A DNA stretch of 63,477 bases, the filler included, from Folioceros fuciformis (lineage: Eukaryota): assembly GCA_049999805.1 (NCBI GenBank). It is 9 parts of 9 records of this genome, joined end to end, with 100 filler letters (N's around TTAATTAATTAA, not from the genome) between each part and the next. Parts side by side here need not be neighbours in the genome. Positions count along the whole stretch, not along the records: positions 32,894 to 39,453 come from JBNGIO010002883.1; 8 more parts are not named here. One strand, written 5' to 3'. Position 1 is the stretch's first letter. Each line of letters opens with the position of its first letter. A model generated the notes under the pieces. It saw only the letters and a program-made list of their open reading frames with translations, was not told the DNA's origin and did not search any database. Positions 7,402-49,000 of this stretch are shown one piece after another. The position numbers and the translations under genes were made by a program.

Positions 7402-7582
7402 TAAAGGAAATAATGAATAGTTAATCCTAGATTAATTAGGGTTAGTTTAATAATCAGTTATAGCAGTTCTACAAACCACTTTCGTAGATAGATACACCAT
7501 GCAACGATAAAAATATAACCATTTTTTCATTTTGCTCGTTGCACGCTGCTGCTCGTTCCCCTCACGCATGTGAACCGCGTTA
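7402..7582 (+). repeat. 3' LTR of element A
   Basis: Follows the PPT and matches 1187-1366. Confidence 0.92.
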
Positions 7583-17754: not shown

Positions 17755-17996
17755 GGTTTGAGTTTTGAGCTGGCTCAGCGGTTTTGAGTTTTGAGCCTGC
17801 CTCATAAGTTTTGAGTTTCGAGCCTGCCTCAGCATTTTTGAGTTTTGAGCCTCCCTCAACAGTTTTGAGTTTTGAGCCTGCCTCAATAGTTTTGACTTTT
17901 GAGCCTACCTCAGCAGTTTTGAGTTTTGAGCCTGCCTCAGTAGTTTTGACTTTTGAGCCTACCTCAGCAGGTTTGAGTTTTGAGCCTGCCTCAGCG
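17755..17996. repeat. 27-bp minisatellite, 9 copies (GTTTTGAGTTTTGAGCCTGCCTCAGCA)
   Basis: Units start at 17755, 17781, 17808, 17835, 17862, 17889, 17916, 17943 and 17970. Confidence 0.95.
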
Positions 17997-18032
17997 GAAA
18001 TGTTCGAGACAGACAATGAGCAGGAGGATGAG

Positions 18033-18921
18033 TGTGGGCAAGCGGGCATGGTATCCCTACCAGGCACCCGCTCACATGTATCGTGGCCACATCAATCCCA
18101 CGGTCGTTGTAGGCTTCCCCGGAATCGCTCCCCTCTGAGCCTGGTCAGCTACATCTATTGCTCCCCTACACTAGTCAACTCTCCCAACCACGTACCTACC
18201 AATCTGGCCACACGTCCCATCAATAGGTAGGCACCATTCCTTCGCTTGGAAGGGCCCCAATACCTCCCCCTACCAACTTCCAACTACCTACACCCAGCAC
18301 CTTTCCCCACAAGTCTCCTCACAACACCTTCTACACAATCCAACTCCACGTTTCCCTACGTTCAAGACTCCCAACCAAACATCACAAGAACCTTTGCGAT
18401 CGGCAACAGAAAGGGCACTCGCAGCTCCCCCTTCCGCCAGGATGTCCACACAGGCTTACGAAAATTGGTTCTCTATTCGTCACGAAACACTTACAATCAA
18501 AGAATGGGGGGCCTCTGGCTCAAGTTCTTCGTTCTACTTATATAGGATGGCAGATGGCTTCCTACCTACCACTAGCCGTGGCCAGCTTTAACTACGCACA
18601 CCTACCAAGAGGCTAAGACCTACTAATAGTTGCTAAGGCAGTGCGCGCCGATGAAGATTAGGACTGTCGGTGCTGCCATAGAAGATTCGTTGACCCCCTT
18701 TTTCAAAAAGGTATGGCTAGGATGGCTCTTGAAGGGAGGCAGAGTCTCAAGGTTGAGCCACTGGGCCCCCCTCCATTATTGGGATTCGTCTTCTTTTGGA
18801 TCCACAAGCTACCTCCATACCTTCTGTGGAGGCAAAACCCCGGGCACTGATTGCCAACGGGTTCCACCTTTAGTGGCCACACTTATCCCACTGTCGTTGA
18901 GACATTGGGTTTCGTTCCCAC
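18033..18921 (-). repeat. LTR of the same family as solo LTR 46868-47819, almost complete
   Basis: Terminus TGTGGGCAAGCG is the reverse complement of 47808-47819; core 18640-18825 matches 47580-47762; the other end GTTCCCAC stops at the contig edge. Confidence 0.85.
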
Positions 18922-19021: not shown

Positions 19022-22000
19022 ACAGCAACACCTTCTTTGAATACTCAGCAAGTTCCTATCAAACCTCCTAATGTTGCATGTTCATCTAATCCTGATTGCG
19101 CATCTAGATTTGAGCATACGCACGATCAACAAACTTCTCAACACAAATTGGGCAACTCTCAAGGCAATAATCTACAGGCTGTAAGCCGTGCATCGATTGA
19201 TCAGCATTTACAAGAAGAGATTTCAGCTGCTGCTGATTTCCTTTGAAAATTCCGGAGAGCTGAGCATTGTCAACCTCAAGAGGTCTCACAAGCAAAGGCG
19301 CCATATCACAACAGCCATTCTTCAGCAAATCTTCCAAAAGAAACTTTACAAAATTGCTGCAATTCTCCTCCACCACCAGCGCCTCTCAATGACAACCAGA
19401 TCCCAGACGACACAGTTGATTCTATCCAAGATTTGAAGCATCTCGAAGCATATTTCATTCCAGATCTCTTTCCGGTCTTCCATAACCATACAGTTGCAGA
19501 TCTTGGTTGCACCGCTTACAATCCTAGGTCGACAACGTCGTCCTCCTCCGGCGCACATGCTATGATTGGTGGTTTCTCATCTGGATTACCTGAGCCCCAT
19601 ATCAAAGGGGCTGAAGATTCTAGAGCTATGGACGGTTATGCCCGCGCGCGTCTCGCGTGCGTTGGTAACTGTCTGGCACCGTTCCACGAACGGTGCCCTA
19701 AAAACAATTTAAGGGCACCCGTTCGCGAATGGTGCCCTAATGAATTATTTTTGGCACCCATTCGCAAAGGGTGCCCTAATGAAGTATTTTCGGCACCGTT
19801 TCAAAACGTTTCTATGCATGATGACGTTTTGAATCTTGGATCCTCAGGTGGGGTGCAGCTAGGCAATATTTCTGGATCTCATTTTGCACCTCCTGAGCCC
19901 TCGTCTGCACCCGCTCGAAGCTCCTCACCTCCTTATACGCAGCCTCTGGCGGTAGAGTGTCCAGTTTTTCCAGCTTCAGTCATCAAGCAAGAGCCCTTGT
20001 CGCCGCACTTTCAACCTAACGACCTTGCCACTCAGCGTTACCTTTATCAGCAAGCTGGTGCTACTCCTCAAGAGCTATTTCAACTGGAGTGTCGTCATCT
20101 CTGGGATTATCTTAATTAGCTCTCTGAGTCGGTGCACTCAGTTGCCCAAGCAATTCAACATCTTTCTACTGTTTATGGCCCTAGTACTTGTGGCATCGTT
20201 CATTGGGTTGCTTGACTTTCCGGACTTTTATTCGTATAACATTTGAGTTGATCCTATTCAAGATTTGATATATCAATATATATATATTTGAAGACTACTT
20301 GGCTCCTCGTCATAACTTGGAGTTGGCAGTCCTTCTTGTATTTCTTTTATGCTTCTATCTAATCACTATTGTTTGCTTCTTTCATGATGGCTCCCTCATC
20401 AAACACGCCCCCTGCTCCTATCATCAATTATATGAATGTGACTTCTGAATTCAAAGAGAAAGACCATTTGGACTGCACTAAGTTCAAGATATGGTCCAAA
20501 CGTATGTGTTTTGTCTTGAATACAAGAGATCTATTTGGCATAGTTGATGGATCTATCACCAAACCTAATGGGCCTTCACTTACCCATGACTCTTGGTTGA
20601 AACAAGACAAGCTAGCTATGCATATCCTTATCTTGAGCCTCGATGAAGTCACTCTTCATCATCTTGACGGTGCTATTACTGCTGCTGAGGCTTGGTGGCA
20701 GCTAGTCGATATTTTTCAATCTACCAATGTTATGACATTAGTAACAGGGCGTAACGAATTTTATTCTCTCCGCATGAATAATAATGAGAGCATTGGTACT
20801 TATGTTGGCAAGTTTCGTTATCTTCAGGCCCAGGTTGCTGCCTTAGGCACTCCCTTATCGGAATTCGAAGCTTGTGTCCAATTGTTGGCCTCCCTTCCTG
20901 CTAACTTTCAAGCATTTGTGTCCTCTCAGAATGGCACTGTTCAAGAGGATCATCAGGTAGTAAAGGCTAGCCACACACCCAACATTTCCATCTCGGAAAT
21001 TGCCAACGCCAACACTTCGAAGCATGGTGGTGAATGAGTTATGTTGGTTAGCAAAGGCCGTCAACGCCATCAGCCCCACTAGCAACGTCGTCCTCCTCCA
21101 CCTGATAGACGGCCCTTCACTGCGCCTTCTCCGGCTCCTGGTCGTGGACCTTCGACATCCAAACCTGCTAGTTCCAGCTGCAAGCCCGGTACTTGCAACT
21201 GGTGTCAAATTCCCAGGCCACTGGGAGCCTAATTGCCGCAAGAAGAAAGCTGGCAAGCCTCGACGTCCATCCAAGACTGCCAATACGGTCTCGACCTCCA
21301 AGCAGAAAAGGTCGGCATTGCCCTCAAAGTCTGCTTGGTAGCTTTTGAATATAAGACCTCTTGGCTATTGGATTCCGCTGCCTCTGCGCATATATGCTGC
21401 CATTGTCAAATTTTTTCTGATTATCTCCCTACCGAAGATCAACGTTTTGTTCTTCTCGGCGACGACTCTAGCCTTACTATTGCGGGCACTGATACTTTTA
21501 CTCTTGAAGATGGTTCTGTGCTTCTTCTAAGTGATGTGCTGCATGTTCCGCAAATGGCAAAGAATCTTATTTTCGTTCGACACTTGGTGAAGGATGGTAC
21601 GTTCCGGCTAGAGTTTGGAAGAGGCGATTGCCTCCTCACAAGATCTGTTGCTCCTGGTCGAGTGGTTGCCAGAGGTCGTCCGCAGCATGATCTCTATGTC
21701 TTCTCTGCCATACCAGTGATCACGGCTTCCTTGACCCCAGCTTCCGCAATGGCAACTGCGGTCGACAGAGGGAGTTCCCGCACAGGTGACTCCCTATTAT
21801 GGCATTCTCGGCTTGGACATATTAATCATGCTAAGCTTCTTGAGATGTCTAGGCAGGATTTATTTAGGGAGAAGCTACCTAACCTTTCACAGACTCCACT
21901 ATTGTGTGAACCTTGTATATATATGCTAAACAATGTAGTTTCCCCTATCCTACTCTACTTGCCCGTCAGGCTACTCAGCTCTTGGAGTTGGTCCATGTTG

Positions 22001-25000
22001 ATCTTTGTGGTCCACTTCCCGTCCTTTCACTTGGCGGCGCACTGTATTTTATGACTATTGTTGACGACTATAGTCGTTATACCTTTGCTATTCCGCTCAA
22101 GTTGAAGAGTGACTCCTTCGACTCCTTTGCTCCTTTTGTCACTATGGTCGAGCTGCAAACTAGTTGCAAGCTTCGGAGTATTAGATCTGACAATGCAGGG
22201 GAATTAAATAACCGGCAATTTAAGGATTTCTATCTTAAGAGGGGGATTCTCCGTCAATTTATGGTTCCCTACACTTCTCAGCAGAATGGGGTTGCTGACA
22301 AGGCCAGCGGCGATCTGCTCGCCATGGCTCGCGCTATGCTAACCTGCACTCAGCTCCCCAAACCCTTCTAGGCCGAAGCGATTAATACTGCAGCGTATCT
22401 CCGCAACAGGGTACTTTCCAAGTCCGTTCCTGACCAGACACCCTTTGAGTCCTGGCATGGATATAAGCCTCTTATTACTCATCTTCGGATTTTTGGCTGC
22501 CCCGCCTATGGTAATATTCCTTCTCAGCTTCGCAACAAGCTTTCTGCTCGTGCTGGCAAGCTGGTATTTGTTGGCTATGGCGAGGACCGTAAGGCTTATA
22601 AACTGGTTGACTTGGATACCCATGCTATTGTCTATGCTCGCACTGTCACTTTCGATGAGGCTTGGTTAGCATCTACTCGTTCTGAGTCCATGGATTCTAC
22701 TTCGGCTGCTTCAGACGACACTGCTTCTTCCGACCCAGGTGACCTTATGCCTGAGTTTTTGACTCAGCCCTCTGTTTTCCCGGACTTTGGTCCTGCACCC
22801 ACTGCTCCATCCTTGGCCTCTTCACCTCAAACAACACCTATCCCTATTGTTCCTACTCGAGAGGGGGAAGATGAACAGGCCATTGTTGATCCTTATGAAA
22901 ACAAAGAAGACTTTGGTGCTCTTAATCCACAAGACCCAAAGATTGTTCCTGCTCCACCTTCTCCTGTAATACTTGATCCAACTCCTGAGCGAAGATATCC
23001 TTTGTGTCATCGTCAATCGAGACACCTCTGGAATGAGAACCCCTTTGATTTAGAGTTCAATCAAGCTAGGTACACCACCACTGCTGCAGGTCACTTCAAC
23101 GCCTTTAGTGTTGCCCCTTCAGAGGGAGATCCTCTCACTCTGCAAGAGGCATATTCGCAACCCGATGCAACTAAGTGGAAGTTCGCTTTTGATGAATATA
23201 ATTCTCTTATCAAAAATAATACTTGGACTCTAGTAAACTTGCCAAAAGGCAGAACTACTGTCAAATGCAAGTGGGTTCTCAAAACTAAATTCCAGGAGGT
23301 TGAACCTTGTATTCGCTATAAGGCAAGACTAGTTGCTAAGGGTTATAGTCAGAGAGAGGGAGTGGTCTATCGGGGCGATAAGGTTTATTCACCTGTAGTC
23401 AAGGTTGCTTCCGTGAGAATGCTCTTGGCTTTATGTGCCGAGCTTAATCTGGACATTTATCAGCTTGATGTTTGTACTGCTTTCCTTTATGGTCATCTGC
23501 AAGAAGAGATCTATATGGATCAACCAGAAGACTATGAAGATAAGCAATATCCAAATAAGGTGTGTAAACTTATTCGTTCTATTTACAAACTAAAGCAAAG
23601 CCCACGTTTATGGTATGAGAGAATGGACTCTTACCTCAAGAAGATAGATTTTATCCAAAGTGAAGCAGACACCAATATCTATATACTCCGCAAGAACAAC
23701 TCCCTTGTAGTGGTTGCTCTATATGTTGATGACTTAGTTATTCCTGGCAACAATATTGAACTAGTTAACAAGATTAAAGCTGACCTTAGTAAAGAATTCG
23801 AGATGAAGGATCTCGGCAAAGTTAAATATATTCTTGGTATGCATGTACATAGAGATACCACTGGTGCTATCTATCTCCATCAAGGAAGATATGTAGCTAG
23901 TATGTTAAAATGCTTCAATTTGGAGAATGCACGTGCGGCAGCCACACCTGGCGCCGTAGGTGTTAAGCTTTCATCTGCTACCTGTCCACAATCAAAACAA
24001 GAAAAGAAAGAGATAGAAAATATTCGTTATCGTATGGGAGTTGGTACTCTCATGTTCTTAAGTAATCAGACTAGACTTGATATCTCAAATACTGTAAATG
24101 CTATTGCTCAGTTCTCAGAGAATCCAAGAAAGGATCACTAGGTTACTCTTATGCGCATCATGTGGTACCTCAAGGGTACTCCAAATTATGGCCTCTACTT
24201 CAAGCCTAGCGGAAAGAAGCATCTGCTATTGACATGCTTTGTCAATGTAGATTGGACTTCAGACGCTAATACCCAAAAAGTATCTTAGCATATTGCTTTC
24301 TTGTTGGCTCCACTATTGTTAATTGGTCTTGTAAAAGACAAGCTGCCATATCACTTTCATCAACTGAATCGGAGTACAAAGCACTCAGTGAAGCCACGAA
24401 AGAGGCTGAATGGGAAAGAAAGCTATGTGAAGATTTAGATATGAAGCATGAAGGGCCAACAATACTTAATTATGACAATATGTGAGCCATTGCTCTTGTT
24501 GCTAATCTTGTCTTTCATGTGCGCACGAAGCATATTGAGATTTAACACCGTTATATTCGTGACGCTGCTGAGAGGGGAATTGTTAAGGTACAGTATGTAC
24601 CCACAGACGACAATACAACACATATACTGATAAAATCCCTGCCGAAATTTAAACACTACTTCCACAGAGAAAGGCTTGGATTGGTTGACTGTAGAGCTTT
24701 TTGAAGCTAGACTAGTCACACATTTGATGAGGCATATCTTATCACAAAACGTTTAGTTACTTGAAGTTGATAGCTATTGTAGACCGCTTACTTCAATCTT
24801 ACTTGCGGCCGGTGATGATCGGTGAGTTGAGTTTAGTTGAAGATTGAAGTACTTATACAATACTCCAACGGCAAATGATTATTAGTTCTTTGATTTAGAT
24901 AACCCAACTAGTATGAGAGGGAGAGTTAGAAGTACAGACCGCGTTGGTTATGGGTAACTTAGCTAGCGTGGTCATACCCTTTAGTATCTAGTACCAAAGA

Positions 25001-25116
25001 GGTACAACTCTTCAGACATAGGCTGTAAAAGCCCACCTCTTGTAATCAATTTTATCAATTAGTAAAGCACTATCTTTGATCAAACGATTCTGCAAAGCAC
25101 TACAAACTTTCTAAGT
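19022..25116 (+). mobile_element. Ty1/copia element B, 5'-truncated by the contig edge, with upstream extra ORF
   Basis: Extra ORF ~19037-20119; gag from 20384; PR WLLDSAAS; INT HVDLCGP and RSDNAGE; RT LYVDD; decayed RNaseH; PPT ~24914-24923; LTR 24924-25116. Confidence 0.93.
19675..19806 (+). repeat. 39-bp tandem repeat (3.3 copies), each full unit a GGCACC...GGTGCC hairpin
   Basis: GGCACC starts at 19675, 19714, 19753 and 19792. Confidence 0.9.
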
Positions 25117-25175
25117 ATATTGGCAATGAAAGACCCTTGTGCCATATTCTGACCCATACCATATTATGCCATTGA

Positions 25176-25787
25176 GGGGCCTAGTGAAGATTCATTATGT
25201 GTCAACAAATGACAATATGGCTGATGTGTTGATGAAGTCCTTGCCTAAGTTCAAACACTGCTTTCATAGAGCAAGACTTGGCTTATAGATTGTAGTAGTC
25301 ATGTTTCACAAGACAAATTGCTCATTTGGTAAGACCTTCAGTGATTCTTCCATCGTCTTCGAAGAAAGCTGATGCTGAAGACTTGCTCCTTTTGTGGTCA
25401 TGATCGCTGCTCTATTACGTGAGTGGCTATTGTCGACAGACTCAACAATACGAGGTGCGACTAGAAGATGTGACAACCGAGCTGAAGATGGTAGCCTTCA
25501 GTGATAGTATATCTTTCGCAGTGATCTTTGTTTCTTAGAATGGAGCTCTCAAAACAACAACGTGTTTGAGAGGGAGAGGTAGAATGTATTAACAGATCAC
25601 GTTGGTTCTGTACTAGCTAGATTTGTTAGCTAGGGTTAGGAGATAGTTTCAGTTAGTCAACAAGGCTGGTAAAAGGTCACACCTCTTGGGTCATGGTCTA
25701 CAAAAGACAACCTTTTGTACTATCTTAATTGACTTTAGGTATTTCTAACATATATAGAAAATACACTTCCAAATGTAATTTCTAACT
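25176..25787 (+). mobile_element. 3' end (RNaseH tail, 3' UTR, PPT, LTR 25577-25787) of another copia of the B/D lineage
   Basis: Colinear with 34898-35508. Confidence 0.88.
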
Positions 25788-28410: not shown

Positions 28411-31400
28411 GCCTCCATGCTTGATGCTTTTTGAAGAGGTCAGCTTCAATTGAGAGGTCACCAGGTAGAAGCAAAGGGTAGCGTCTGGATCCTCCCCTCA
28501 CCTCGTATCAAGGGGCTACTATGGCAAATGTGACACGGCTTGACTTCAAGGATAAGGATCGATTTTCTGGAGCAAACTATGACATCTGGGCTCATAGGGT
28601 CAAGACCTTGCTGCAAGTCAAGGAATTGTGGGACATCGTGGATGGCACAATCTCCAAGCCAGGGGCCAACACACCGCAGGCCGATGTTGCAGCATGGACA
28701 AAGAAAGATCTTAGAGCAAGAGCCATACTGGAGGCCACTATTGACAGTTCGATGATCCACCACATAGATAATGCATGTGAGTCACACATGGCATGGATGG
28801 CTATGTCGTAGATGTTTGCGACTACCAACCAATCCTCCCTGGTACATGCTACTAGATCTTTCTGGAACTGTAAGATGAAAGGACACGGGCAGTGTTGAGG
28901 AGCATGTAATGCGGTTTCGCCACCTTAGGCAAAAGCTGGCATCCGCAGGTATGATAGTCACGGAGCTACAGGCTTCAGTGGCTTTGCTCATGTCATTGCC
29001 AGATAAATATCAGGTGTTTGTCAGCACACAAAACAGCAGCTTGAGGACTGCTACTGCAAGTTTTGTGTCCTTATCTAGTACAATCGGTGCCCTACTCGAA
29101 GAGGAAGCGACCCTGCATCCAAGCCGTGGAGGCCAAAGCTCACATAGCCAGGTCCTTTACACTGGCAGAGGAGGAAGAGGGGGTTGCGGTGGCCACTTTG
29201 CTACAAGACCACCATCGCAGGGTAGAGGCAAGACAAATGAAGGTCGAGCTCTGCCGAATCCCAACCATAGGAAACTCACTTGCAACTAGTGTCGTATCTT
29301 AGGCCACATCGAAGCCGATTGCCGAAAGAAAAAAGCCGGGGAGCCAAGAAAAGCATTAGAGGCTCAAGTGGCTGCCCGGGCCAAAATGACAAACCCAAAT
29401 GCCATTCTCACTTTGTGCCTCGCACACACCAAGGCTGATCTCAATTATTGGTTTGTCGATTCAGGTGCCTCAGCGCACATATGCTACACTCGAGAAGGCT
29501 TTATCAAAAACAATAGCTATACACGTGGACAGTTTGTTCTACTTGGAGATGAGAGTGGACTTGCCGTTGCCAGTTGTGGCATCGTGCAAATCCAGCTGCA
29601 AGATGGGTCTACTCGCCTTCTTCACCAAGTGCTACATGTTCCACAGATGTGTAAAAATCTATTATCTGTTCAGCATCTTTGCAGGGACTGGATGGTCAAC
29701 ATCTCATTCAGCAAGGACCATTGTGACCTGCGAGAGACACAGACAGATCACATCCTGGCCCTTGGTACCTTGCACGCTGATTTATACAAGCTGGATTGTA
29801 TTACCTTACCTGCTAGAAGTCCACAAACTGACTCAACATCCCAAGTAATGCTAGCCAAATTTCTTACACATACTGATCCTCAACTCTTGTGGCACTCAAG
29901 ACTTGCACATCCGAACTTCACGAAGATGAAACGGATGACAGAGCAGAGTTGTACCGGGACCCACTCACTTGGAAGGTCATTGACACACATGTATTCTGTG
30001 GTGCCTGCATCCACAGCAAGATGGTCAAGAAGAAGCCTAAGAAGGGTGAGCATGACCATGCATCTGACTTATTGGAAATGGTCCATACTGATCTCTGTGG
30101 CCCAATGTCAACACCATCTCTTGGTGGTTCCCTTTATTTCATGGCTGTAATTGATTATCACAGTAGATACACCACCACATATTTCCTACGCCGCAAGAGT
30201 GAAGCCTTAGAAATGTTCAAGCAATATGTTGACTTCTCTCAAAGACAAACTGGGAAGACCCTCAAAGTGCTCAGAACTGATAATGGAGGCAAATTTATTA
30301 GCAGCGATTTCCAATCATATTGCCATTCCCTTGGCATTGCCCGCCAACTCACATCGTCTCACACATCCAGCCAAAACCCAATTGGCAGAGGCTAAAAACA
30401 GATACCTCCAAGAAGCAGCCAAGGCCATGCTGTATCAATCTGGTTTACCCAAGCAATATTGGGCAGATGCAGTACAGACTGCGACATATGTGCAAAACCG
30501 CTTGCCAACCTCTTCTTTCACAGGAGCTACCCCATATGAGAGATGGACTGGCCATCGACCATCCATTTCACATCTAAAAATATTTGGCAGCCGTGTGTAT
30601 ATCCACATTCCACGGACCCAAAGAAGGAAGCTTGATTACCAGGCCCGTGCAATGACCTTCATTGGGTACACCAAGGGGATCAAAGGGTACAAGGTATATG
30701 ACACTAGCTCTGGCTATGTTACTCACACTCGTGTTGGTATATTTGATGAAGACACCCTGTTGGTTGCGGCTTGTGCCCGAAAAGGGGGGAGACAAGATGA
30801 TGTGATGACTGACTCTACGTTCTCTGAACTCCATAGCGATAGTGATTTTGAAATTGAGCAGATAACTCCAACTGTGAGTTAGCCACGAGCAGCTCTGCCA
30901 TAAGCCCCAATCCATACTTTAGCTCCAGGCTCAAATCCGCCACTACAAGATGATGCAGATGATTGTGATGTATTTGAGACCAATACAAGTGTGGGTGAAG
31001 CTGATACCAATGTGCCAATACAACTTGAACTTGGTCAGCCTGCTACGCTTAGGAGGTCAGCGAGACACCATACAAGTTCTCCCCTGGAATGGAGTCAAGT
31101 GCCACTTGCCATGGAAGGGCACATACGGCTGGATGCGAAAAAGAATGTCATGCTGGCTCAAATACTCATAGCAGCCCAAGACCTAGGTGAACCAACATCC
31201 TACCAAGAAGCCATCAACTCACCGGAGAAGGAACAGTGGCAGGCAGCGATCAAATCAGAGTATGACTCTCTCATTGAGAACAAGACGTGGGAATTGGTTG
31301 ATCTACCTCATGGAAGGAGGCCGATTTCAAACAAATGGGTGTTCAAAAGGAAGCTCAACCCTGATGGCACCACCGCTAGACTCAAGGCTAGATTAGTGGT

Positions 31401-32793
31401 GCGTGCCTCAAACAATTGAATCATGGGTGGAACTTGAGGTTGCACACATATCTTGTAAGGAGAGGGTTTAAGCAATCAGGGTTTAGGGTTTAGGGTTTAG
31501 CACTTATGAACCCAACGATGGGAAGCATATTTCTCCATCAGCAGCATTATGTGAACAGATTACTTGAGAAGTTCAATATGCAAAATACAAAGCCAGTAGC
31601 AACTCCAGCTGCAGTGGGGGCTACCTTGACACAAGATCAGTTTCCCAAGACGCCTACTGAGCAAAAGGAGATGGAGAATATACCATACAAAGTTCTCGTA
31701 GGTTGTTTGCTATGGTTGAGTGGTTGGACCAGGTATTGCCCATGCAACATCAATTGCCTCATAGTTTCTAGCTAATCCAGGATAGCAACATTGGGTAGCT
31801 ATAAAACGTGTTCTCAGGTACTTGAAAGGCACATCTTCATGCGATTATACAAACATAGATAGATTATTTTTATATAGATGCGCACGAGCATTCATAGTCC
31901 AAGCATACAGCCGCACGCACCGCGTAAAGATGAGCATCACACGAACAAGACATGGAGGAAGTTATTAACTAACTAACCGCCAAACCGGCAGCCATAACCC
32001 TAATAGACTAACCTAAATAATGCTAGGTCATGTACTCTATATAAGGGGATCAGGCGAAATATCCGCCGACACATCTGACCTAGGACTTTTGTACATCAAA
32101 CAAGGAGACTCTAGAAGAGTTTGGATGGAATGCAAGATGGACTCCAATTGGGCTGGTGATAACGACACACGTCGATCCACATGAGCATACTGTATGAAGG
32201 TGTGTGGGGGCCTTGTCAGTTGGTCCTCGAAGAAGTAGACAGTAGTTGCACTTTCGTTCGTAGAGGCCGAATATGCGGCAGCTACAACTGCAGCCCAAGA
32301 GGTCATGCACCATCAAAATTTCCTGGAAACCTTAGGCTACAAGCAGCAGGAGCCGACGCCCATGTACTGTGGCAATCAATCTGCTATTGCTATAGCAAAG
32401 AATCCCATCTCACATGCTCGTACCAGACATGTGGAGGTGAAGCAACATTTCATTAGAAATGCAATTGCCAACAAGATAATCAGTTTTAGCTATATTCCCA
32501 CAGATGACAACACAGCTGATCTACTAACAAAGGCTCTTACAAAAGAGAAACATAATCAGCATGTTGTGGGGCTTGGATTGAGGCATAGATTTGAAGCTGA
32601 AACCGAAGAAAAAAGGAGGTGGCTAAGAAGACTGGCAACAACTGACAATTGCGACTAAGTGGGGGTGCAAAGTAAAGCATAGAAGTAGTCTAGCGTCAGC
32701 AGTCAATAGTCAAGTCAAGTTGATCAAGTTAGAGCTAGGGTTAATTAGCCCATTATGAAAAGACACACAATTATTGAAAACCCAACCGTCATT
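28411..32793 (+). mobile_element. Ty1/copia element C, decayed, with RT deletions and a nested solo LTR
   Basis: gag ATG 28521 (DFKDKDRFSG); PR WFVDSGAS; INT HTDLCGP and TDNGGKF; RT lacks its YVDD segment; RNaseH to 32658; PPT AAGTGGGGG; LTR starts TGCAAAG at 32666. Confidence 0.92.
31837..32071. mobile_element. 235-bp solo LTR-like insertion with 5-bp TSD CATCT
   Basis: Interrupts the host sequence YLKGTS|DLGLLY. CATCT at 31832-31836 and 32072-32076; termini TC...CA (+) or TG...GA (-); TATA-like motifs. Confidence 0.85.
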
Positions 32794-33111: not shown

Positions 33112-35700
33112 CTGTCTCCACCATGGCTCCTTTACCTCAAGCAGTTACGGTTCTTCCCGGTCCTGCTCGAGAGGGGGAAGATGATCGGCCCATGGATGAT
33201 GCACAAGGGCAGATGCCTTTGGATTTGGGGGACATACATGTTGGTGTGGCTCCAGACATTCCTGTACCGCCACCATCACCCCCAAGACCTGAAGTCTTTG
33301 TTCCTAAGCGTAGGTACCCTACGCGTCAGCGACTCCCAAGACACCTCTGGCATGAGAAGCCATTTGACTTGGAGTTCAATCAAGCTGGCTATACTGATTT
33401 TGATCCAGCAACCTATTCTTTTGCTATGAGTTCTATTATTTCAGAGGGAGATCCTCTCACACTTCAAGAAGCATATGCGAGACCCGAGGCTAACAAGTGG
33501 AAACTGGCTATTGATGATGAGTTTAACTCTTTAGTCAAGAATAACACTTGGGCATTAGTGGATCTACCCCCAGGAAGGACAACTGTCAAGTGCAAGTGGG
33601 TACTCAAAACAAAGTTTCAAGAGGTTGAGCCCCGCATACGTTATAAAGCGAGGCTAGTGGCCAAGGGCTATAGTCAGAAAGAAGGAGTCGACTATCAAGG
33701 CGATCAAGTCTACTCACCTGTCGTCAAAGCAACTTTGATAAGGATGCTCCTTGCTTTATGTGCAGAACTTAACTTGGACATCTATCAGCTGGACGTTTGT
33801 ACAACCTTCCTCTATGGTCACTTGGAAGAAGAGATCTACAAGGATCAACCTGAGGATTATCAAGATAAGAGATTCCCGCAAAAGGTGTGTAAACTCCTTC
33901 GTTCTATTTATGGGCTCAAACAAAGTCCTCGACTGTGGTACAAGAGAATTGACTCTTATCTTAAGAAGATTGGCTTCGTGCAAAGCGAAGCAGATACTAA
34001 CCTGTATGTGCTACAAAAGGACAGCTCACTTGTTTTAATAGCGTTATACGTGGATGACTTAGTTATCCCCGGTAATAATGTGGAGCTGGTTAACCAGATC
34101 AAGGCTGATCTTAGCAAGGAGTTTGAAATGAAAGATCTGGGTCAAGTTAAATACATCCTTGGAATGCGTACACAAAGACAGGTCCACTGGAGCAATCTAC
34201 CTTCATCAAGGTCGATATGTAGCCGGGATGCTCAAGAGGTTCAACTTGGAGAATGCACGAGCAACTGTCACTCTAGGTGCTGTTGGTGTTAAGCTCTCCT
34301 CAAGTTCTTGTCCACAGTCTAATGAAGAGAAAAAGGAAATGGAGAGTGTGCCTTATCGTATGGCGGTTGGCACCCTCATGTTTCTAAGCAATTGGACAGG
34401 ACCAAACATATCTAATACTATTAATGCACTTGCGCAATTCTCTGAGAACCCAGGAAGGGATCACTGGGTAGCACTTAAAAGAATTAAGCGGTACCTCAAG
34501 GGTACTCCTAATTATGGTCTCTACTACAAGCCCAGTGGCAAAAGGAGTCTACAATTGACTTGCTATGTTGATGCAAATTGGGCTTCCGATGCAGATACGC
34601 GAAAGAGTCTTTCGGCTTATTGCTTCCTTGCCAGCTCCACTGTTGTGAATTGGTCTTGTAGGAAACAAGCCTCTATATCTTTGTCCTCCACGGAATCGGA
34701 GTACAAAGCTCTCACAGAAGCCACTAAGGAGGCAGAGTGGGAAAGGAAGTTATGCGAAGACTTGGGTATGCAACAAGCAGGACCTACGCTTATTAACTGT
34801 GATAATATGTCAGCCATCGCCCTGGTTTCCAACCTTGTGTTTCACGCCCATACTAAGCACATCGAGATTCAACATCACTATGTTAGAGATGCTGCTGAGA
34901 GGGGCTTAGTGAAGATACAATATGTGTCAACAGATGATAATATGGCTGATGTTCTGACAAAGTCTTTGCCCAAGTTTAAACACTATTTCCACAGAGAAGG
35001 GCTAGGACTTGTAGATTGTAGTAGCTATGTGACACTACACAAATCACTCATTTGGTAAGGCTTTCCGTGGTTGTTCCATCATCTACGAAGATAACTTAAC
35101 TAGAGGACTTGCTTCTGCTCTGGTCATGACTGGTGCTCTACTGCGTGAGTTGCTGTCGACGACGGACTCAGCGTTAGTAGGTGCGACTGGAAGATGTGAC
35201 AGCCGAGTCGAAGATGGTAGCCTTCAGTGACAGTTATTTTTAGTTGTGATCTCCTTTTCTTAGTTTGGAGCTCTCAGAACTGCAACATGTCTGAGAGGGA
35301 GAGTTAGAAATAATAGCAGACCACATTGGTTCTGTACTAATATGGTTAGTCAACTAGACCTAGCAGTTAATATAGGTAGTTAGCCAGGCTAGCGAAAGGA
35401 CACATCCCTTGGGAGACCACCTATAAAAGCCTACCTATGAACACACTAATTTTAACTTTTGTTAATATAGCATCTTTGTTCAAGACGCTTCCACAGGCAA
35501 TTCTAACTTGGTATCAGAGCCACAGGGCTCTTACCTTGGTCTTCAGATCCAATGGCTAGATTACGTATGTATCACTATCTAGGTGAGCAATGGACGCATG
35601 AAGCTCTATATGCTCGCTTATGGATAGATGCGCTAGATACGTCGTTCTCGTTAGCAGATTGGAATGATCAGACCACCACTGTAAGACACGACAATATCTT
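33112..35700 (+). mobile_element. Ty1/copia element D: RT-RNaseH, PPT, LTR 35302-35508, then PBS and the start of a second unit
   Basis: RT (ALYVDD) and RNaseH are nearly intact with one frameshift at ~34165; PPT 35293-35301; TGGTATCAGAGC 35509-35520; ORF from ATG 35552. Confidence 0.93.
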
Positions 35701-36490
35701 TGGCCAGGGCTGACATGTTATCACAATACAGGGGTGTTGGGCTCTCTTCCTTCTAGTCAATGTCGGCCAGAAAGGTTCGCTCCCACTCGGCCTCCTTATC
35801 AGCATCAGTGAGTGAGTTGTACTCTGCTTCCGTGGAGGAGAGAGCGATAGAAGTCTGCTTCTTGCAGCTCCAATTCATGGCTGCAGAAGACTCCTAGGAG
35901 GAAGCAGTGTGTGCTAAGACTCCTACATGAGTCAGGGTCAGAGGCCCAATCTGCATTGGTGTAGCCTTCGAGTGACAGCTTCCCCGTGCTTTTGCTTCTA
36001 TACGCCAAACCATAGGTGATAGTTCCTTTAAGGTAGCGGAAGATTCTCTTAACAACAACCCAGTGTGCCTTTCTTGGTGATTCTAAGAATTGGGACATAG
36101 TGGAAACCGAATACTAGATGTCAGGTCTGGTCCATCCACTAACAAAGATAAGACTGCCCACGACATGGCGATAAGGAACTGACTCCATTTCCCTAGTCTC
36201 CTCTATTGTCTGTGGGCATTGATCTGCTATGAGCTTTGTGCCAACAGCGTAAGGGGTGCTAACGGCCCTGGCTTGGTCCAGGCAAAATTTCTCAAGTATC
36301 TCCTTGATATACTTATATCGATGGATGACAAAGTTGCCTTGGGCTCTGTCTCTGAGGATTTGGATTCCGAGGCAGAACCGAAGCTCGCCTCTATCCTTCA
36401 TCTCAAATCGGGTGCTCAAAAGTTGCTTTACCTCTTCTAACATGGCTTGGCTGTTTGTGGCGAGGATGAGGTCGTCCACATAGAGGCCGA
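35700..36490 (-). mobile_element. Copia RT/RNaseH fragment
   Basis: GLYVDDLILAT, FEMKDRG, YLKGT, ADWASD; cut at 36491 by an LTR insertion. Confidence 0.9.
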
Positions 36491-39891: not shown

Positions 39892-42800
39892 ATGGTAGCT
39901 ATGCAGGGTGATTAGAACGTCTTGGAGCTTCATCCACCTCGCTGCAGGCTTAGCTGCATCTGCATACTGCCTTGTGTCTTGGTGTTGCATCCTTTGATTG
40001 CCAGATACTAACATCCCTCCCTATCTCTGTGCCGCAGTATTTGAAAAGTAGAGAGACTGGGAAGCATCAGACAGAGCACAAAACAACATCAGAGGACTCG
40101 GGCCTCACCCGTAAGTCCCTCTTCAACCCCCTAAGTTGCAGACTTGAAGTATTGTTGGTAGTTGAAGAGACCCAAGCCTTCCATGTGCTTAACATGCTTG
40201 TCCTTTGGCAAGGCTTTAGTCAGGATGTCCGCTGTGTTTTCCTCTGTGGGCACATAGAGAATTTTAACTACGCCCCTCTCAGCGGCATCCCTGACGTAAT
40301 GATGGTGGATCTCGATGTGTTTCGTGCGAGCATGGAAGCGAGGGTTCGCGACCAAAGCTATGGCCGATTGATTATCACACCAGAGGTTAGTAGAATCTGT
40401 TTGTGGTTCCCCAATATCTTTTAAGAAAGCACGCTCCCACTCAACCTCTTTCGTGGCATCTGTAAGGGACTTGTACTCGGCCTCTGTACTGGAGAGAGCA
40501 ATGCTCGTCTGCTTCTTACAGCTCTAGTTGACAGCAGCCTGAGACAGCAGAAAAACATATGTGGAGAGACTTTTCCTGGAGTCATTGTCAGACGCCCAAT
40601 CTGCGTCTGTGAACCCCTTCAGAGATAAGTTGCCTGTACCACTGCTTCTGTAACAGAGTACGATGTGATGAGTTCCTTTCAAGTAACGAAATATGCGTTT
40701 GACAGCAGTCCAGTGAACACGCCCAGGGTTTTCTAAGAATTGAGAGACAGTACTGACGGAGTGCTGTATATCAAGGCGGGTCCAGTTGCTGATGAAGATC
40801 AAGCTGCCAACAACGTGACGGTAAGGAACATCTTGCATGTCTTTTTGGTCAGCCTCTGTAAGGGCACATGCATATCTTGTGAGCTTGACACTCACTGCGC
40901 CTGGGGTGGTAGCAGGGTGTGCAGAACCCATGTTAAACTTGTGAAGGATTTCAGCTATATACTTAGGTTGGTGAATGATAAGGAGCCTGTCAGAACGAAC
41001 TCGAAGGACTTGAATTCCAAGACAGAATAGTAAATCCCCACTATCTGTCATTTCAAAGGTTTGCCTTAACATATTTTTCACTGTGGCCAGCATAGAGGTG
41101 TCATTGGCAGCAAGGATCACATCGTCTACATACAGTGCAAGAATCATGTAAGCGTTTCCTTACTGTAGAACATAGACGTTAGAGTCTGCTACACACTGCC
41201 GAAACCCAAGAGCCTTTAAGGCCTTGTCACAACGTTTATACCAGCGTTCTGCACTTTGCTTCAAACCATACAGACATTTGATGAGCTGACATACGTAGTC
41301 GGGATGTGCAGGGTCAGCATAACCCTCAGGCTGTTCCATATACAGCTCCACTTCTAAAATGCCATGCAAAAAAGCAATGTAGACATCCATCTGCTACAAT
41401 TCAAGGTCATATTCAGCGGCTAGGGCAAAAATGAGGCGAAGAGATTGGGCACGTACAACCGGAGAAAATGTCTCCTGATAATCAAGACCTGCCACTTGTG
41501 TGAAACCTCGAGCACAGAGACGTGCCTTGTATCTTGCTATTCTCCCTTCTGCATTTAGCTTGTGCTTGAAAACCCATTTGCAGGTGATTGGTTTTCGGTT
41601 GGCAGGTCTGGGAACTAACTTCCATGTGCCGTTTTTGATCAGGCTGTTGTACTCATCATCCACTGCATATTTCCATTTATCCTTATCTGGTCCTGTAAGA
41701 GCTTCTGTGAGGCTAACAGGTTCAAGTGGAACAGGTGGGGGAGCAGTAACAGCTCCAGCAGAATAGCGAAAGTCAATAGACTGGTATCTAGGCTCCTTCC
41801 ATTCTGAAGGTGGGGGCTTGTGATGAGATGATCGTCGCGGGACAACATCATCCTCAGGAGGGTCTGGAGCCACAAAAGGTGGAGCGGCTTCTGGCCCCTC
41901 TGCTACTTGATGAGGTAGGCCATTTCCATCAAAGCCCCCTGCTGGATCATCCTCTGGAAAAAAGATGTCAGGGAACAGATCATAGTCTTCATCATTATGT
42001 GACCCCAAGTCCAAACCATCTGGTCCTAACATATTGGCCACTTCTGCGGCAGGTGCGGGAAGGACTGCAGGTGGAGGGTCTTCAGCATTTGGCAGAGGTG
42101 CTGGGTCCTGTACATCAGGAGCAGCATCCAAATCGCCTGGAAGGTTAGCAACATCTCCTGCCTCGGGTAAAGCACCATCGGCATCATCAGGGTAATAAGA
42201 GAACAGTCCAGTAGAATCATCAAGATCATTTGAACTGTCAGTAGGTTCTGGAAGAAGTCTGTCCTTTCTGTCAATAGGCTGTAGAGGCTCGACAAAGGTA
42301 ACACTCCTCGCTAGAACCAGCTGTCTGGATGTTGGGTCTAAGAGCTTGTATGCTTTTACATGTTCACTATACCCTATAAAGGTAAGGCATCGTGAACGAT
42401 TATCTAACTTCTTGCGTTTTTCTGCAGGGATATGAGCATAGGCTTTAGAGCCAAAGACCCTAAGATGTAGAAGACTAGGTTTACGTTTCCAGGCAAGCTC
42501 AAACGGTGTGGCAGACGCAAGGGAACTAGTTGGCAATCTGTTCAAAATATATGTGGCAGTCACTACAGCTTCAGCCCAGTAGGAAGAAGGTAAGCCAGAC
42601 CACAGTAACGTAGCCCTTGTCATCCCCATCAGCGTTTGGTTTTTGCGCTCAGCAACCCCATTCTGTTGCTAGGTGTAAGGGACTGTTAGCTGATGGATGA
42701 TGCCCTGTTCTGCCAGGAAATTTTTGAAAGTGTGGTTGACAAACTCTGTCCCATTATCCGACCGGAAAACCTTTAGCAAAGACCTGTTTGCCTTTGAACC

Positions 42801-44829
42801 AAGAGCAACCAGTCCTGGAACAAGGAAAAGGTTTCACTCTTGCGTTTCATGGGAAAAATCCAAGTGTATCGGCTAAAATCATCTGTGATAGTGAAATAAT
42901 ATTCTGCCCCTCCAAGTGATGGAACCTGAAGACGGCCAGAGATATTAGAGTGAACAAGGTCAAGGAGCTGAGTGGTTCTGTGAGCGGGAACAGAAGGAAA
43001 TGGAAGCTCCTTCTGCTTAGTAAGAGCACAAGTCTCACAGAGAGGCAGCTCCTTCAAACAAGATGGTAAGGGCTCCCTATATAATCTAGCTTTTGACATT
43101 GCAGTCAGCGTGTTCCTGTTGACATGCCCTAAACGAGCATGCCACAAAATAGATTGCTGCTTAGTGCTTAGGTTGCCAGCACTTGTTGAATATGCCGTGT
43201 TCCTGTGACCAGGAACACAGACCATGTCCAGACGATACAAATCATTCTCTGGAATAGCCCTGAAGACACAAGTTTCTGGAGAGGTCCTCCTGGAGAAGCA
43301 ACAGCAGTCATCCCTAGCAGTAAGCTCAAAAGTCTTGAGTTGCAGAAGCCTGCTCAGGGAAAGGAGGTTCTTAGCCATGTGAAGCACGAACAGCACATCT
43401 GTGAGTATGAGTGTTGTTCCATCACTCAAGTGGAAGGTGCAGGATCCCTGTCCTTGGATCCGCAGGCTTGTATCCTTCTGTTCATCACCTAGATATACCC
43501 GATCTACAGTGGTCGTGTATTCGAGGGAACTGAACAGAGATGCCTCCCTACAAATGTGTGAAGTGGCACCCAAATCCAGGTACCATGCTGTCTTATCTCC
43601 AGTAGATGTGGATAGGCAGATTGTTAGAATTTTGACTACTGTCTTCCTTGAATCACCAGTTTTGTCTTTAACAGTGACGGTGGCTGCAGATCGGGGAGGC
43701 TGCTTCTGAGGCTCCCCAGCTTTCTTCTTTCTACAGTCTCGAGCCCAGTGACAAGGAATACCACACCAATTACAAGTACCTGTTTTCTTGGTTGAATTGG
43801 AATTAGAGGATCCTGCATCCTGTCGTGAGTTTTGATAATATGGTGCTGTCTTAGGTTTGCCCCTCTGCCCCTGTCTACTCCGGATAGCAGTTAGCACTCT
43901 GTCAGCTTTGGACTTAGAACCAGACCCTGACATGAGCCTGCTCTGCTCTTCCTGGAACAGGGCACCTATCACCTCGTCTAAGGTGAGAGTGGAGGTTTTA
44001 CCAGCAGCCTGTGCCTGACGGATGGGCACGTTGTGTGCAGACACAAAATTCTGATAGCTAGGAGGTAAGCTGGTAAGCAACTGTGCAATGACATCTACTT
44101 CATCCATCACAGTGCCTACAGCCGCAAGTTGGGCTCGGAGATGTCTGAGCTTGCTGGTGTGAGCAAGTACTTTTTCTCCTTCCCTCATCCTGAGCCCATA
44201 GAATTCTTGTCGAAGTGCACACAAGGTAAGTACGTTGCGTACTTCATACTGGTTAGAAAGCTGTTTCCAAATCTCACTAGCTTTGGTGAGAAATTCTACT
44301 GCAGGGATCATGTCCTCTGCAAGACCACCTATCAGAAGTGCCATGGAGATACTGTTAGCATGAGCCCATTTGTCCTTTTCTCCCTTCGTTGTAGAGGGAT
44401 CAGGTTCAGGGATGGAGCCATCTACAATTCCCAAGACACCTCTGGCTAACAAGGTAGTTTTCATCCTCACCCTCCATACCTCATACTTAGTCCCATTAAA
44501 CCTATCTTTTTCTTTTACACTTTCTGTGAAGGTGGGGCTATTGTATCCAGGAGGAGGAGGGGGAGGTGGTGATGTATCCATCTGAGGTTAAACTAGATGA
44601 ACTACAGGTCAGGGTATGTCCGCTGTCTATGGGCGTAGAAGAGCTATCTGACATACAGGTGAACACTAAGCAAGCTATGGCGAATGGTCACCAGCTATGA
44701 GAGACAGACCTCTTCATGACGAAACGGTAAGTGAAGAAGATGGTAAACTCATGATTTAAAAATACTAACCATAGTTACATTTCATGAGTTTAGGGAAAAA
44801 GACCCTAACTAATCAGCCATGTGGCAGTT

Positions 44830-45442
44830 GATGCAGCGAATGTCACGGGATGAGGAAAGGGGCTTCAGCCTGAAACATCTCTTCCTGCGCAATCACCACT
44901 GAACATGTCGCTTCAGATCTCGAGTGCCACTGGCTCCTACTGCTGCAGGTTGGTCACTTGCTGGCGCCCTGTGGCTCGCGAGGAGGGAGTAGTGTCTCAA
45001 GAAATAGAGCAGCCATAGGCTGTACAGCAGAAACAAATGTATCTCGTAAATTGAGGTTTGAGACCAATTCTGTAAGATGCTGCACCTCTTTTTCCAATAA
45101 TTCTAAGCGGCCATTTGTCTCACTGGATAGTGACCTGATTCTGCCAGTAATCTCCAAATGCCTGCTTGTGGCCAATGTATTCTGGTATGTTAGAACCCTG
45201 AAAAGAGCTGTTTCTGTTGTGTTTAGTCTCTAAGACAAAACTCTGTAAGCGCCAACAATTTCTGGTAAGTCTGGAGAAAGATCAGGAAATAATCGGGTGA
45301 GTTCCTGCTCCTGTTCCCGTTCAGAATCCTCGTCGTCCTCTTGTGACCCCCTGGAGAAGGACCGATTCCTTCTTGTTTGGTGTGCAGGCGAGTCCATACA
45401 ATTGGGACGAGACAGATCCGCTCTACGGTATTGAGCAGCCAT
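44830..45442 (-). pseudogene. Accessory ORF0b (acidic plus coiled coil) between ORF0a and gag
   Basis: ORFs 45442-45230 and 45175-44954 are in one frame across a TAG; heptad-like LELLEKEVQHLTELVSNL. Confidence 0.55.
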
Positions 45443-45595
45443 TTCCTGGATTTGGAAATTTAGAAAACCCCATTAAACATTTCTCCAGTGTTCTCTGTAA
45501 TTATTAAAACTGATAATTGTGTGTAGGAGGGAACAGGAAATCCCTGTTGCTCTTTCTGGTCCACAATGTCAGATTTTAGTTTTAATAAATATGCT

Positions 45596-45852
45596 TTAAT
45601 TCCTCATGAGATTGCGCAGCGGAATTACATATGATCTTAGGTTGAGGTCGAGGCTAGTCCATACTCGTCGATTCAACCTCTTAGATGATACGATAGCAAC
45701 TTGCTCATAGCTGCCATCCACCGTGAGATGGTACCAATTGGCGAACCAAAAACAAGGCATCTATGGCCTCAACCCACAAACGCAGAAGAATCTTTTTCAC
45801 TCCATTGTTTGTCGAGGTATGAATACCTTATGGTTCCTCTCGATCTAGTCAT
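45596..45852 (-). pseudogene. Accessory ORF0a (~85 aa) directly after the PBS, two frameshifts
   Basis: MTRSRGTIRYSYLDKQWSEK-ILLRLWVEAIDALFWFANW... aligns with the post-PBS ORF at 35552. Confidence 0.7.
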
Positions 45853-46098
45853 CCTCTCAAAGTGTTTATCAAGAGCATAGCTCTGATACCATGTTCGGGT
45901 AGAACCATAGTCAGAGTGCAAAAAGGAAAACAAAGCAAAGGTCTAATTAAGAACATAAACATAATACCATACAAGTAAAGTAGGTTTGTGTGTTCTAAGT
46001 ACTTCTATCTAGGCAACCCTACTCAAGGTGTCTTTTGGATGTATGACTATAACAATATATTTCTAAACCCTAAGCCGTGCCAGCTTATATATTTAACA

Positions 46099-49000
46099 CG
46101 CAAGGCCTAACTTTAAAGGTAAACAGAATACCTTTCAAGGTGCTGGTAGCTCACGGGGAGCTACAGCACAGAACAAACCCAAAAGGACTGGAAAATGCCA
46201 CTGGTGCCAAGTTCCAGGACATTGGGAGAATGAGTGTGGAAAGAAGCAGGCCGGAGTACCTTGCAAGGAGGGCAACTCCACTTCTCAACACAGTTTGTGG
46301 TGAAAAAGCAAGCCTCACCTTCAGCTCTGATAGTAGGGATAAGGAAGTTTGCAATTCCTCTTGCTAACCCCACTTGTTTGTCTGCAAATATACAAGGTAG
46401 ATCAATTAATGAATGGTACCTTGATACTAGTGCAACAAGGCACATATGCTTTGACAAAAATGCTTTTGTCACATACAGACTAGTAGACAATCAGTTTGTC
46501 TACCTTGGTGATGATAGATCACTTGTGTCTCCAGGAAAAGGCACAATAAAAGTTCCAGTTCCCTCTGGAATCACACTCATACTGAAAGATGTATATTATG
46601 TCCCTGAAATGACTAGGAATCTCATGTCTATTAGGAAACAAAACTTGGATAATAATACTCATATCCTATTTACCCCTACAGAGTGCAGGATCATTGATGC
46701 TTTTGATCCCTGCAAGATACTAGCTTCTGGGTCATCAGAACATGACTTGTTTCGCCTACACACTCGTCGTCACACAGCAAAGACACACTTAGCTTTTAAC
46801 TCTTCAGAAGCAACAAGTAAGCTAGAAGACAAGGCTAAGTTATGGCATGCTCGCCTAGGTCACCCTCTGTGGAACGGAAAAGTTTGGTAATCGGTCTATG
46901 AAAGTCTAACTTGGTTTCTTTTTGTTCAGAATAGTTCGAAGGGAGGCATGTGGAAGGTAGGTTTTTGGGCAAGTGCCCATGGTAGGTAGTGAGTGGCTGG
47001 TGAAGGTTTTTATGGAGTTTTTTTTTTTTTTCTATTCTGGTAGGTTAGAATAAGAAGATACCTATATAGTAGGATGTCTACCTACGTAGGTAGAGAGAGT
47101 ACCTACTTGGGAAAATGGAAGATACCTACGTAGGTAGGGAAGGTACTTATACGGTAGATACCCCACCTACGGCAATGGGGTAGGCTGTCTACCTACGACA
47201 ATGGGTGGGAATGGTAGGGAACCTGCCTATGAGAGGAGGGGTAGGGAACCTAGGTTACCTACAAGAGGAGGGGTAGGCAACCTACCTACGAGGGGAGGGG
47301 TAGGCAACCTACCAACGAGAGGAAGGGTAGGGAACCTACCTACGAGAGGAGGGGTAGGGAACCTACCTACGAGAGGAGGGGTAGGCAACCTACCTACGAG
47401 AGGAGGCGAAGGAATGGTAGGGACCCTACCTACGAAGGGAGCAATAGGTACCCTACCTACAGAGGGAACATTCGCACCCTATGTAGGGAAGGAGCCTCAA
47501 GTTGAGGAATAAGGGGATCCCTCCCCTACCAAACTTGTAGGTGGTGGTGAAGGGATATCCCAAGAGATCCACACAGAGGAAGGTACGGTGGAAGTTCGTG
47601 GATCCAAAAGAAGATGAGTCCCAATAATGGAGGGGGGCCCATTAGCTCAGCCTTCAGACTCTACCTCCCTTCAGGAGCCATCCTAGCCACACCTTTTTGA
47701 AAAGGGGGTCAAGGAATCTTCTATGGCGGCACCGACAGTCCTAATCTTCATCGGCGTGCACTACCCTACGATACATGTGAGCGGGTGCCTAGTAGGGATA
47801 CCACACTCGCTTGCCCACACCCTCATAGTTCAAAGTTACAGAAACTTGCTAATAGTGAGCTGTACAATGATGGAAAAATTGGCAGCTTGCCACCCCTACC
47901 TCTATGTGAAGTCTATGTGTTGTCGAAACGTCATCAAGCAGCTTTCAAGAACAAATCTCCTCACTGAGATTCAGATGTTCTTGAGCTTGTCCACACTGAC
48001 ATATGTGGGCCTCTATCCCAACCTTCAATCGGTGGTGGCAAATATTTCCTCACATTCACTAATGACAAAACCAGGTTTGTCATGGCCTACATCTTACAGG
48101 CCAAGAGTGAGTGTTTTTCTCTGTTTAAAGACTATATGAAATATACAGAGAGATGGATTGGCAAACAATTAAAAACCCTCCGATTTGACAATGGTGGAGG
48201 ATTCACATCTAATGAATTACAGGCCTATTGTGTCATTGAGGGAATAGGTAGACAACTTACAGTTATTTACACACCACAGCAAAATGGTGTTGTTGAGCGC
48301 TTGAATCAGACTTTGCAGGAAATGGTTTCCTCTATGTTACATTAGAGGCCTCTTTGCCACTTTCGTATTGGGCTGAGGCCCTTATGACAGCTGTGTACTT
48401 GCGTAACAGGCTGCCTACCACTGGCGTTGTGAGGAAAACCCCTTATGAAGCCTTCTTTGGCAGAAAACCAGCTATTTTGCATCTTTGCACCTTTGGTTGC
48501 CTTGCTTATGCTTTTATTCCTAAAGCCAAGTGCACCAAGTTAGCTCCTAAAGCCAAGAAATATTTCATGATAGGCTATAGTGAAGGTATTAAGGCATATA
48601 AATCATATGATGTACCTCAGAATCAAGTGGCTTATGCCATTGGATTCTGATAAAACACGTTTTTGGCAGCTAGTGGGAGTACTTCCCACCTCTCAAGAGG
48701 GTTTTGATTTGTCTGCTCTTTCTGACATCACAATTTTTCATGACCTTCCACATGAGGAGTTTGCTCCTGTAGGGGGTGAAGATAATCAGCAAAATGATGG
48801 ACAGGGTGTAGAGAAGGTAGATGAATTAGCAGTACCTAATTTTGCTGCTGACATACATGATCCACCTCCTCATGTTGTTATTGATCCTAAACCCCTTGTT
48901 CCTGATGACGATGATGTACCTGATCCCGATCCAGATCTTGACCCTAATGATGAGGATATACCTGAACCTGTGCGCCGCTCTCTTGCAAGAGAAAGACGGG

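Follow-up and report, generated by a model that had tools for sequence, protein, structure and literature searches.

The terminal CA dinucleotide is regarded as invariant for retroelement integrases, and long terminal repeats (LTRs) bounded by TG...CA are near-universal. We analysed a window of 63,477 nucleotides from Folioceros fuciformis, by which we mean the whole stretch of DNA under study, a series of separate contigs chained through N spacers. At positions 35302-35508 it contains an LTR that begins with AG and ends with CT. The locus raises the question of whether AG and CT are the true ends of integrated elements and, if so, what kind of element carries them and how its integrase came to use them.

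As an earlier note on this DNA had claimed, the LTR lies between a polypurine tract (PPT) and a primer binding site (PBS), and its termini form a perfect 8-bp inverted repeat. Its surroundings, and two related elements in the window (B and C), are listed here; RT is reverse transcriptase, and the AG clade is the group of AG-ended copies described below.

19969..24914, + strand: body of element B (gag, protease, integrase, RT, RNase H) with stops and frameshifts; AG clade
21910..22659, + strand: element B integrase core and SH3 domain, with AG-clade substitutions
24924..25108, + strand: element B 3' LTR, AG...CT; PPT at 24915-24923
25174..25576, + strand: element C fragment comprising the end of RNase H, the 3' UTR and the PPT
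25577..25787, + strand: element C 3' LTR, AG...CT, followed by unrelated flank
33112..35292, + strand: 3' part of the upstream Copia copy (RT, RNase H, 3' UTR); RVT_2 E 5e-62; 96% identity to L036
35293..35301, + strand: PPT, adjoining the first A of the LTR
35302..35508, + strand: 207-bp LTR, AG...CT, shared as the end of the upstream copy and the start of the downstream copy
35509..35520, + strand: PBS, adjoining the last T of the LTR with zero spacer; presumably the complement of initiator-Met tRNA
35521..35702, + strand: start of the 5' leader of the second copy, then truncated; first ~180 nt, 97% identity to L003

Two further LTRs had been described as related. For the one at 25577-25787 the description was accurate. 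The other does start with AG at 24924, but it had been extended too far: three relatives align exactly up to 25108, so the LTR ends there, in CT, and the end placed at 25116 (...GT) is flanking DNA.

The LTR at 35302-35508 is common to tandem or recombinant copies. Both of its ends are internal and it has no integration junction, so the window alone is insufficient to fix the integrated ends. Contigs from two public runs stop at 35302 and at 35508, and their flanks differ; the runs are possibly from the source sample and are thus not independent. Two further shared LTRs with the PPT-LTR-PBS arrangement are present among the fetched genome loci. Shared-LTR tandem arrangements are seen in the window (35302-35508) and in L017, L072 and L129, and affect both the Copia family and the Gypsy family described below.

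The canonical TG start at 61085, which had been offered as a control, is real, but it lies on another contig in a distant Copia clade and has little value in that role. A closer CA-ended element occupies positions 41397-45891 (- strand), with CA at the PBS (45891), and falls in the sister clade by the integrase tree. Elsewhere the window carries 27-bp tandem repeats (17743-18012 and 47153-47465), near which lies an inverted pair of 190-bp repeats (18634-18824 and 47579-47768).

Genome-wide termini of the AG...CT copies

Exact CT+PBS matches number 28 in the genome assembly (G000, 87 Mb, fragmented), PPT+AG matches 61 and complete AG...CT LTRs 40; the corresponding controls gave 0, 0 and 1. Ten elements or solo LTRs have both outer ends readable. 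Eight of these carry a target-site duplication (TSD) of 5 bp directly outside AG...CT (seven perfect, one with a single mismatch), compared with 0/10 when the boundaries are shifted by -2, -1, +1 or +2. Of the two misses, L048 is ambiguous (its TSD is 4 bp long or a G has been lost), and L049, whose LTRs are 91% identical and have an inverted LTR between them, has none. The 5-bp targets are diverse. In this check, which had been set beforehand, the duplications did not place the boundaries at TG...CA, nor did they exclude the AG and CT dinucleotides from the element. Together with the copies found across the genome, they establish that the AG...CT Copia family proposed in the earlier note is real.

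The outer ends were mostly picked without terminal letters in the search pattern. Among 34 distinct outer left ends, 30 read AG and one each AT, AC, AA and GG, so that A is first in 33. The 54 distinct outer right ends read CT (48), TT (4), AT (1) and GT (1), and every one of them finishes with T. The bases flanking the outer ends are mixed on both sides. Inner ends, unlike outer ones, were mostly picked by patterns holding the letters in question, and read AG in 41/41 and final T in 33/33. Over all right ends the last base is T in 87/87, while the penultimate base varies in 8/87. A search for the family PPT with no constraint on the two bases that follow it gave GG once and TG never.

The A and the T are element-encoded and present at all four LTR ends, directly inside the 5-bp duplications. 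It follows that at either end of the element the 3' base linked to host DNA is T rather than A. The duplications, the mixed flanks and the presence of A and T at the inner junctions with PPT and PBS rule out displaced boundaries and an A or T supplied by the target.

Several copies depart from the commonest form. Penultimate-base variants, AG...GT and AG...TT, occur in L033, L035, L059, L125, L052 and L074; in L033, GT is present in both LTRs, and this variant has therefore been inherited and integrated. The 5' LTRs of L054 and L139 are followed by other sequence in place of the PBS, and in L139 the same 10 bases follow the 5' LTR and the 3' LTR. A short tandem array at G000:C5171:7-279 consists of five copies of an LTR-end+PBS unit.

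The AG...CT lineage and its published counterparts

From its predicted proteins the family is assigned to Ty1/Copia, with gag, protease, integrase, a Copia-type RT and RNase H. The Pfam domain order in two unbroken frames is Retrotran_gag_2, Pol_BBD, gag_pre-integrs, rve, SH3 and RVT_2. Two direct LTRs, a PBS, a PPT and a TSD within 4-6 bp are present as in other members of this group; TG...CA termini, which are typical of Ty1/Copia and do not define it, are absent. Two copies retain unbroken gag-pol frames of 1455 and 1444 amino acids with DDE intact, and the lineage appears to be autonomous. The best integrase matches among solved structures, by sequence, are the Ty1 and PFV integrases. In addition, a structural model (pLDDT 87) has the PFV intasome as its top Foldseek match (E 3e-15) and predicts a DDE integrase with the retroviral-integrase fold. 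In one copy (L072:5643-6968, - strand) a 442-codon open frame lies upstream of gag, of which the last third only is conserved in relatives. We rejected this frame as a gene, given its uneven conservation and the absence of a Pfam or Atlas match, and treat it as leader sequence.

The AG-ended copies are monophyletic in both trees, making up 22 of 55 rows in the integrase tree (100/100) and 20 of 46 in the RT tree (support 100), after rows shorter than 130 amino acids (3 of 58 and 1 of 47, respectively) were left out. In the integrase tree a TG...CA clade is sister to the AG clade (98/94); the RT tree does not single out a sister. LTRs of the sister clade have the same subterminal bases, so the difference between the two clades is one base per end. 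This distinct, well-supported clade, with ends fixed by TSDs, supports the independence of AG...CT from its TG...CA relatives. LTR pairs within the AG clade are 91-100% identical and the integrases of its subfamilies are about 70% identical, which indicates that the AG...CT state is old and has lasted through recent activity.

We found no close relatives elsewhere, the best database proteins being 47-48% identical, and no match in the viral contigs searched. Twelve metagenome matches to the CT+PBS pattern were rejected as unrelated LTRs in which an AG start is not evident.

The earlier note listed TA..CA, TG..GA and TA..TA, and not AG..CT, among the described exceptions to CA ends. AG...CT termini do have precedents: AGT/AnT ends are described for Drosophila errantiviruses (gypsy, ZAM and Idefix subgroups), and the available text of these reports calls them the one exception and lists Copia as TG/CA (PMC5408687, PMC3601003). 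Judged from those texts, our Copia family resembles the errantiviruses in its AGT start, its AnT finish with a variable penultimate base and the lack of CA at either end, and their terminal complementarity of 5-7 bp is comparable. Errantiviruses, in contrast, are described there as Ty3/Gypsy elements with env and sequence-specific targets, whereas the present family has Copia order and diverse 5-bp targets; between RNase H and the PPT we found no open reading frame of 150-200 amino acids or more. The ends of the family thus work as those of errantiviruses do, but it is not one of that group.

Among plants, the accessible parts of two surveys (LTR_retriever and lotus) list the non-TGCA types TGCT, TGGA, TACA, TATA, TGTA, TACT, TCCA, TGGT and TGTT, in all of which the first base is T (bioRxiv 10.1101/137141, PMC9804982). 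AG...CT Copia falls outside both survey classes, as its LTRs do not begin with T. Like the plant non-TGCA Copia elements of these surveys, as far as their available text describes them, it has a short LTR (190-225 bp, versus averages of 272-316 bp), a 5-bp TSD and a tolerated last-base T. However, the types described there retain A at at least one joined 3' end, and AG...CT Copia retains it at neither.

A start with A is also on record, in the consulted sections of a study of Rosaceae, for an AACA Copia family, alongside a TGTT family that ends with T; its authors likewise proposed integrase divergence (PMC5659011). Each of these, as presented there, is asymmetric and keeps CA at one end, whereas AG...CT is symmetric and keeps the second-position G and C. 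Diatom CoDi3.2, 4.2 and 4.3 Copia elements lack a TG/CA inverted repeat, and the main text that describes them is silent on their actual ends (PMC2806351); we found no sequence link between these CoDi families and AG...CT Copia. The portions available of four further papers (PMC2527525, bioRxiv 10.1101/2021.07.27.453949, 10.1101/2023.10.26.564294, PMC12992720) contain nothing on end recognition. A published AG...CT Copia family was not found in the literature outside Repbase and most subscription journals. What appears to be new here is AG...CT in a Copia family; the end type itself was already known from errantiviruses.

Other T-ended families in the same genome

Listing the sequence that precedes the PBS genome-wide brought further T-ended families to light. 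T stands before the PBS at 166 sites (Gypsy spacers included), versus 82 for the commonest CA context.

A second AG...CT family is Ty3/Gypsy (RVT_1, RNase H, integrase and SH3_Tf2-1), with LTRs of about 590 bp; its loci are L124:78-5930, L136:8-6260, L110, L113 and L129-L145. AG follows the PPT in 29/29 matches in which the first base was left free. Ten right ends read CT and then unlike flanks, two are unclear, and in L110, L144 and L145 the right end is not readable. TSDs match at 5/5 bases in L124 and 4/5 in L136, and none is present in L142. The PBS sits 3-4 nt beyond CT, so by the standard mechanism the integrase would have to trim the cDNA after CT to reach a T end. Its top 120 database matches are plant chromoviruses, not errantiviruses, and its order of RT, RNase H and integrase is that of chromoviruses. 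We found no Pfam Chromo match at E 1e-3, although most of the nearest database relatives have PF00385. The AG...CT termini of this family arose independently of those in Copia.

Three separate Copia lineages have TG...CT ends (L116, L117, L119, L126 and L127). These ends are fixed by TSDs in L117, L126 and L127, and the TSD of L116 is unmatched. The TG...CT families are not sisters of the AG clade, and the trees place no TG...CT or AG...CA intermediate beside it.

Two other Copia elements in the window are worth recording. Element A has TA...TA LTRs (1187-1366 and 7402-7582; 93% identical) in flanks without a TSD, and the alteration in its integrase sits immediately ahead of the catalytic Glu and not at the Pro position discussed below. 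A family represented at 28500-32793 and in L009, L040 and L114 has a TG start, Ser at the Pro214 position and a right end that is not fixed; a 74%-identical relative has T before the PBS.

Integrase changes and the origin of AG...CT ends

In PFV and RSV structures, as set out in the available text, residues 212-215 touch the viral DNA end: PFV residues 212-214 contact it, and the RSV equivalent of Gln215 stacks against the G facing the penultimate C (PMC3395085, PMC7955051). The AG clade is changed at 6 of 51 integrase positions that are at least 90% conserved among 118 database homologs. Four of the six fall within the segment that corresponds to PFV 212-228, comprising the DNA-end loop and the alpha4 helix (Fisher p=0.006, a post hoc value, as the segment was chosen after seeing the data). 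At conserved positions of RT and RNase H the clade is changed in 3 of 51 and 3 of 24, respectively.

At the position of PFV Pro214, Ser is present in 22/22 AG-clade rows and Ser or Ala in 5/5 other T-ended Copia rows, namely the TG...CT loci L116, L117, L119, L126 and L127; these 27 rows represent about four independent events, as kin have residues in common. Ser is found there in 0/15 CA-ended and 0/5 TG-start rows, and Ser or Ala in 1/118 database homologs. In two rows with Ser the right end is not fixed, and L120 has T before the PBS yet Gln at this position. In the Gypsy family the residue equivalent to Gln215 is Asp, as in 0 of 120 homologs. Among 60 conserved positions this family shows a single change, which falls in the same helix (p=0.13). 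Both comparisons used database homologs of unknown termini in place of TG...CA Gypsy elements from the same genome.

Ser occurs at the same position in the Ty1 and RSV integrases, yet these use CA ends, and PFV, too, carries the same Asp at the second residue beyond the conserved Asn; single residues are therefore not diagnostic, and Ser at the Pro214 position is excluded as a sufficient cause. Gln replaces the conserved Pro across the whole CA-ended sister clade, including the element at 41397-45891. The changes of the AG clade concentrate in the DNA-end segment, but its TG...CA sister is already changed at two of the four positions, having lost the Pro and an Arg. The proposal in the earlier note that integrase specificity co-evolved with the AG...CT ends is plausible and makes a good hypothesis, and its support is the correlation between residues and end type across these sequences. 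Against it count the CA ends of Ty1 and RSV and a stem of the AG clade that is shorter in integrase (0.43) than in RT (0.61), with no faster integrase evolution seen on it.

We consider it probable that the family is an autonomous Ty1/Copia lineage with AGT...ACT attachment sites and an integrase that prefers a terminal T. Because the PPT and the PBS adjoin the LTR, standard reverse transcription would yield flush cDNA ends with nothing to trim. Since the following cycle would carry a change at an inner LTR end into both LTRs, AG...CT could be reached in two single-base steps, from TG...CA through TG...CT. The halfway TG...CT would be a viable state, being known in other lineages of this genome and in lotus, although not beside the AG clade. 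The preference for a terminal T may stem from substitutions in the loop and in the alpha4 helix, the parts that engage the DNA end.

A possible but less probable account is that discrimination of the last base was lost early and that AG...CT became fixed by a founder effect, with drift and no preference for T. A relaxed enzyme would fit the sister clade, which is CA-ended yet lacks the Pro and has two changed positions in common with the AG clade, and the TG...CT elements, which join one CA and one CT end with one enzyme (L117, L126, L127) and are abundant in lotus according to the available survey text. It would fit, too, the inherited and integrated penultimate variants such as GT in both LTRs of L033. 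It sits poorly, however, with a last T in 87/87 right ends across subfamilies with integrases only about 70% identical. Moreover, departures from terminal A, both here and in the accessible parts of the cited literature, are always to T and never to G or C.

It is unlikely that the host drove convergence, with end repair, an end-binding defence or the removal of tRNA and PPT primers favouring T-ended cDNA. One 87-Mb assembly does hold AG...CT Copia and Gypsy families, three TG...CT Copia lineages and a TA...TA family, and the excess of T over the commonest CA context before the PBS points the same way. But TG...CA Copia elements are abundant and young in this genome (LTR identity 97% in L107 and 93% in L108), and T-ends are reported, in the texts available to us, from Drosophila, lotus, soybean and Rosaceae too, so no special host is needed.

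A mis-set boundary, a target preference for A and T, post-insertion mutation or assembly error is scarcely credible: although both ends of the LTR at 35302-35508 are internal and one of three boundaries in the earlier note was off by 8 nt, TSDs match at the AG...CT boundary only, A and T recur at the inner PPT and PBS junctions, the flanking bases are mixed, and the contigs of the two public runs, possibly of the source sample, break at the same positions.

We regard as doubtful the more general proposal that CA to CT is a repeatable route, promoted by the host, with a readable integrase signature: changes in the alpha4 helix and in the loop equivalent to Pro214/Gln215 would set anew which base is joined. 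If true, nature would have supplied pairs of enzymes from which the reading of the 'invariant' CA by integrases could be worked out.

The expectation that TG...CA-based LTR finders would miss this family is borne out by LTR_retriever, whose seven non-canonical motifs are all T-initial. Annotation that demands TG...CA or one of these motifs will not call AG...CT elements intact, and such families may consequently be undercounted elsewhere. Also new is that an unrelated Gypsy family has made a parallel switch to AG...CT in the same genome, which harbours the halfway TG...CT lineages as well. Two plant surveys state, in their available text, that the first T never changes, but the successful Copia clade described here has T at each of its joined ends. 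Its CA-ended sisters, the TG...CT and TA...TA elements and the convergent Gypsy family form, within one genome, a ready comparative set that bears on why TG...CA is conserved and on which residues read the terminal bases.
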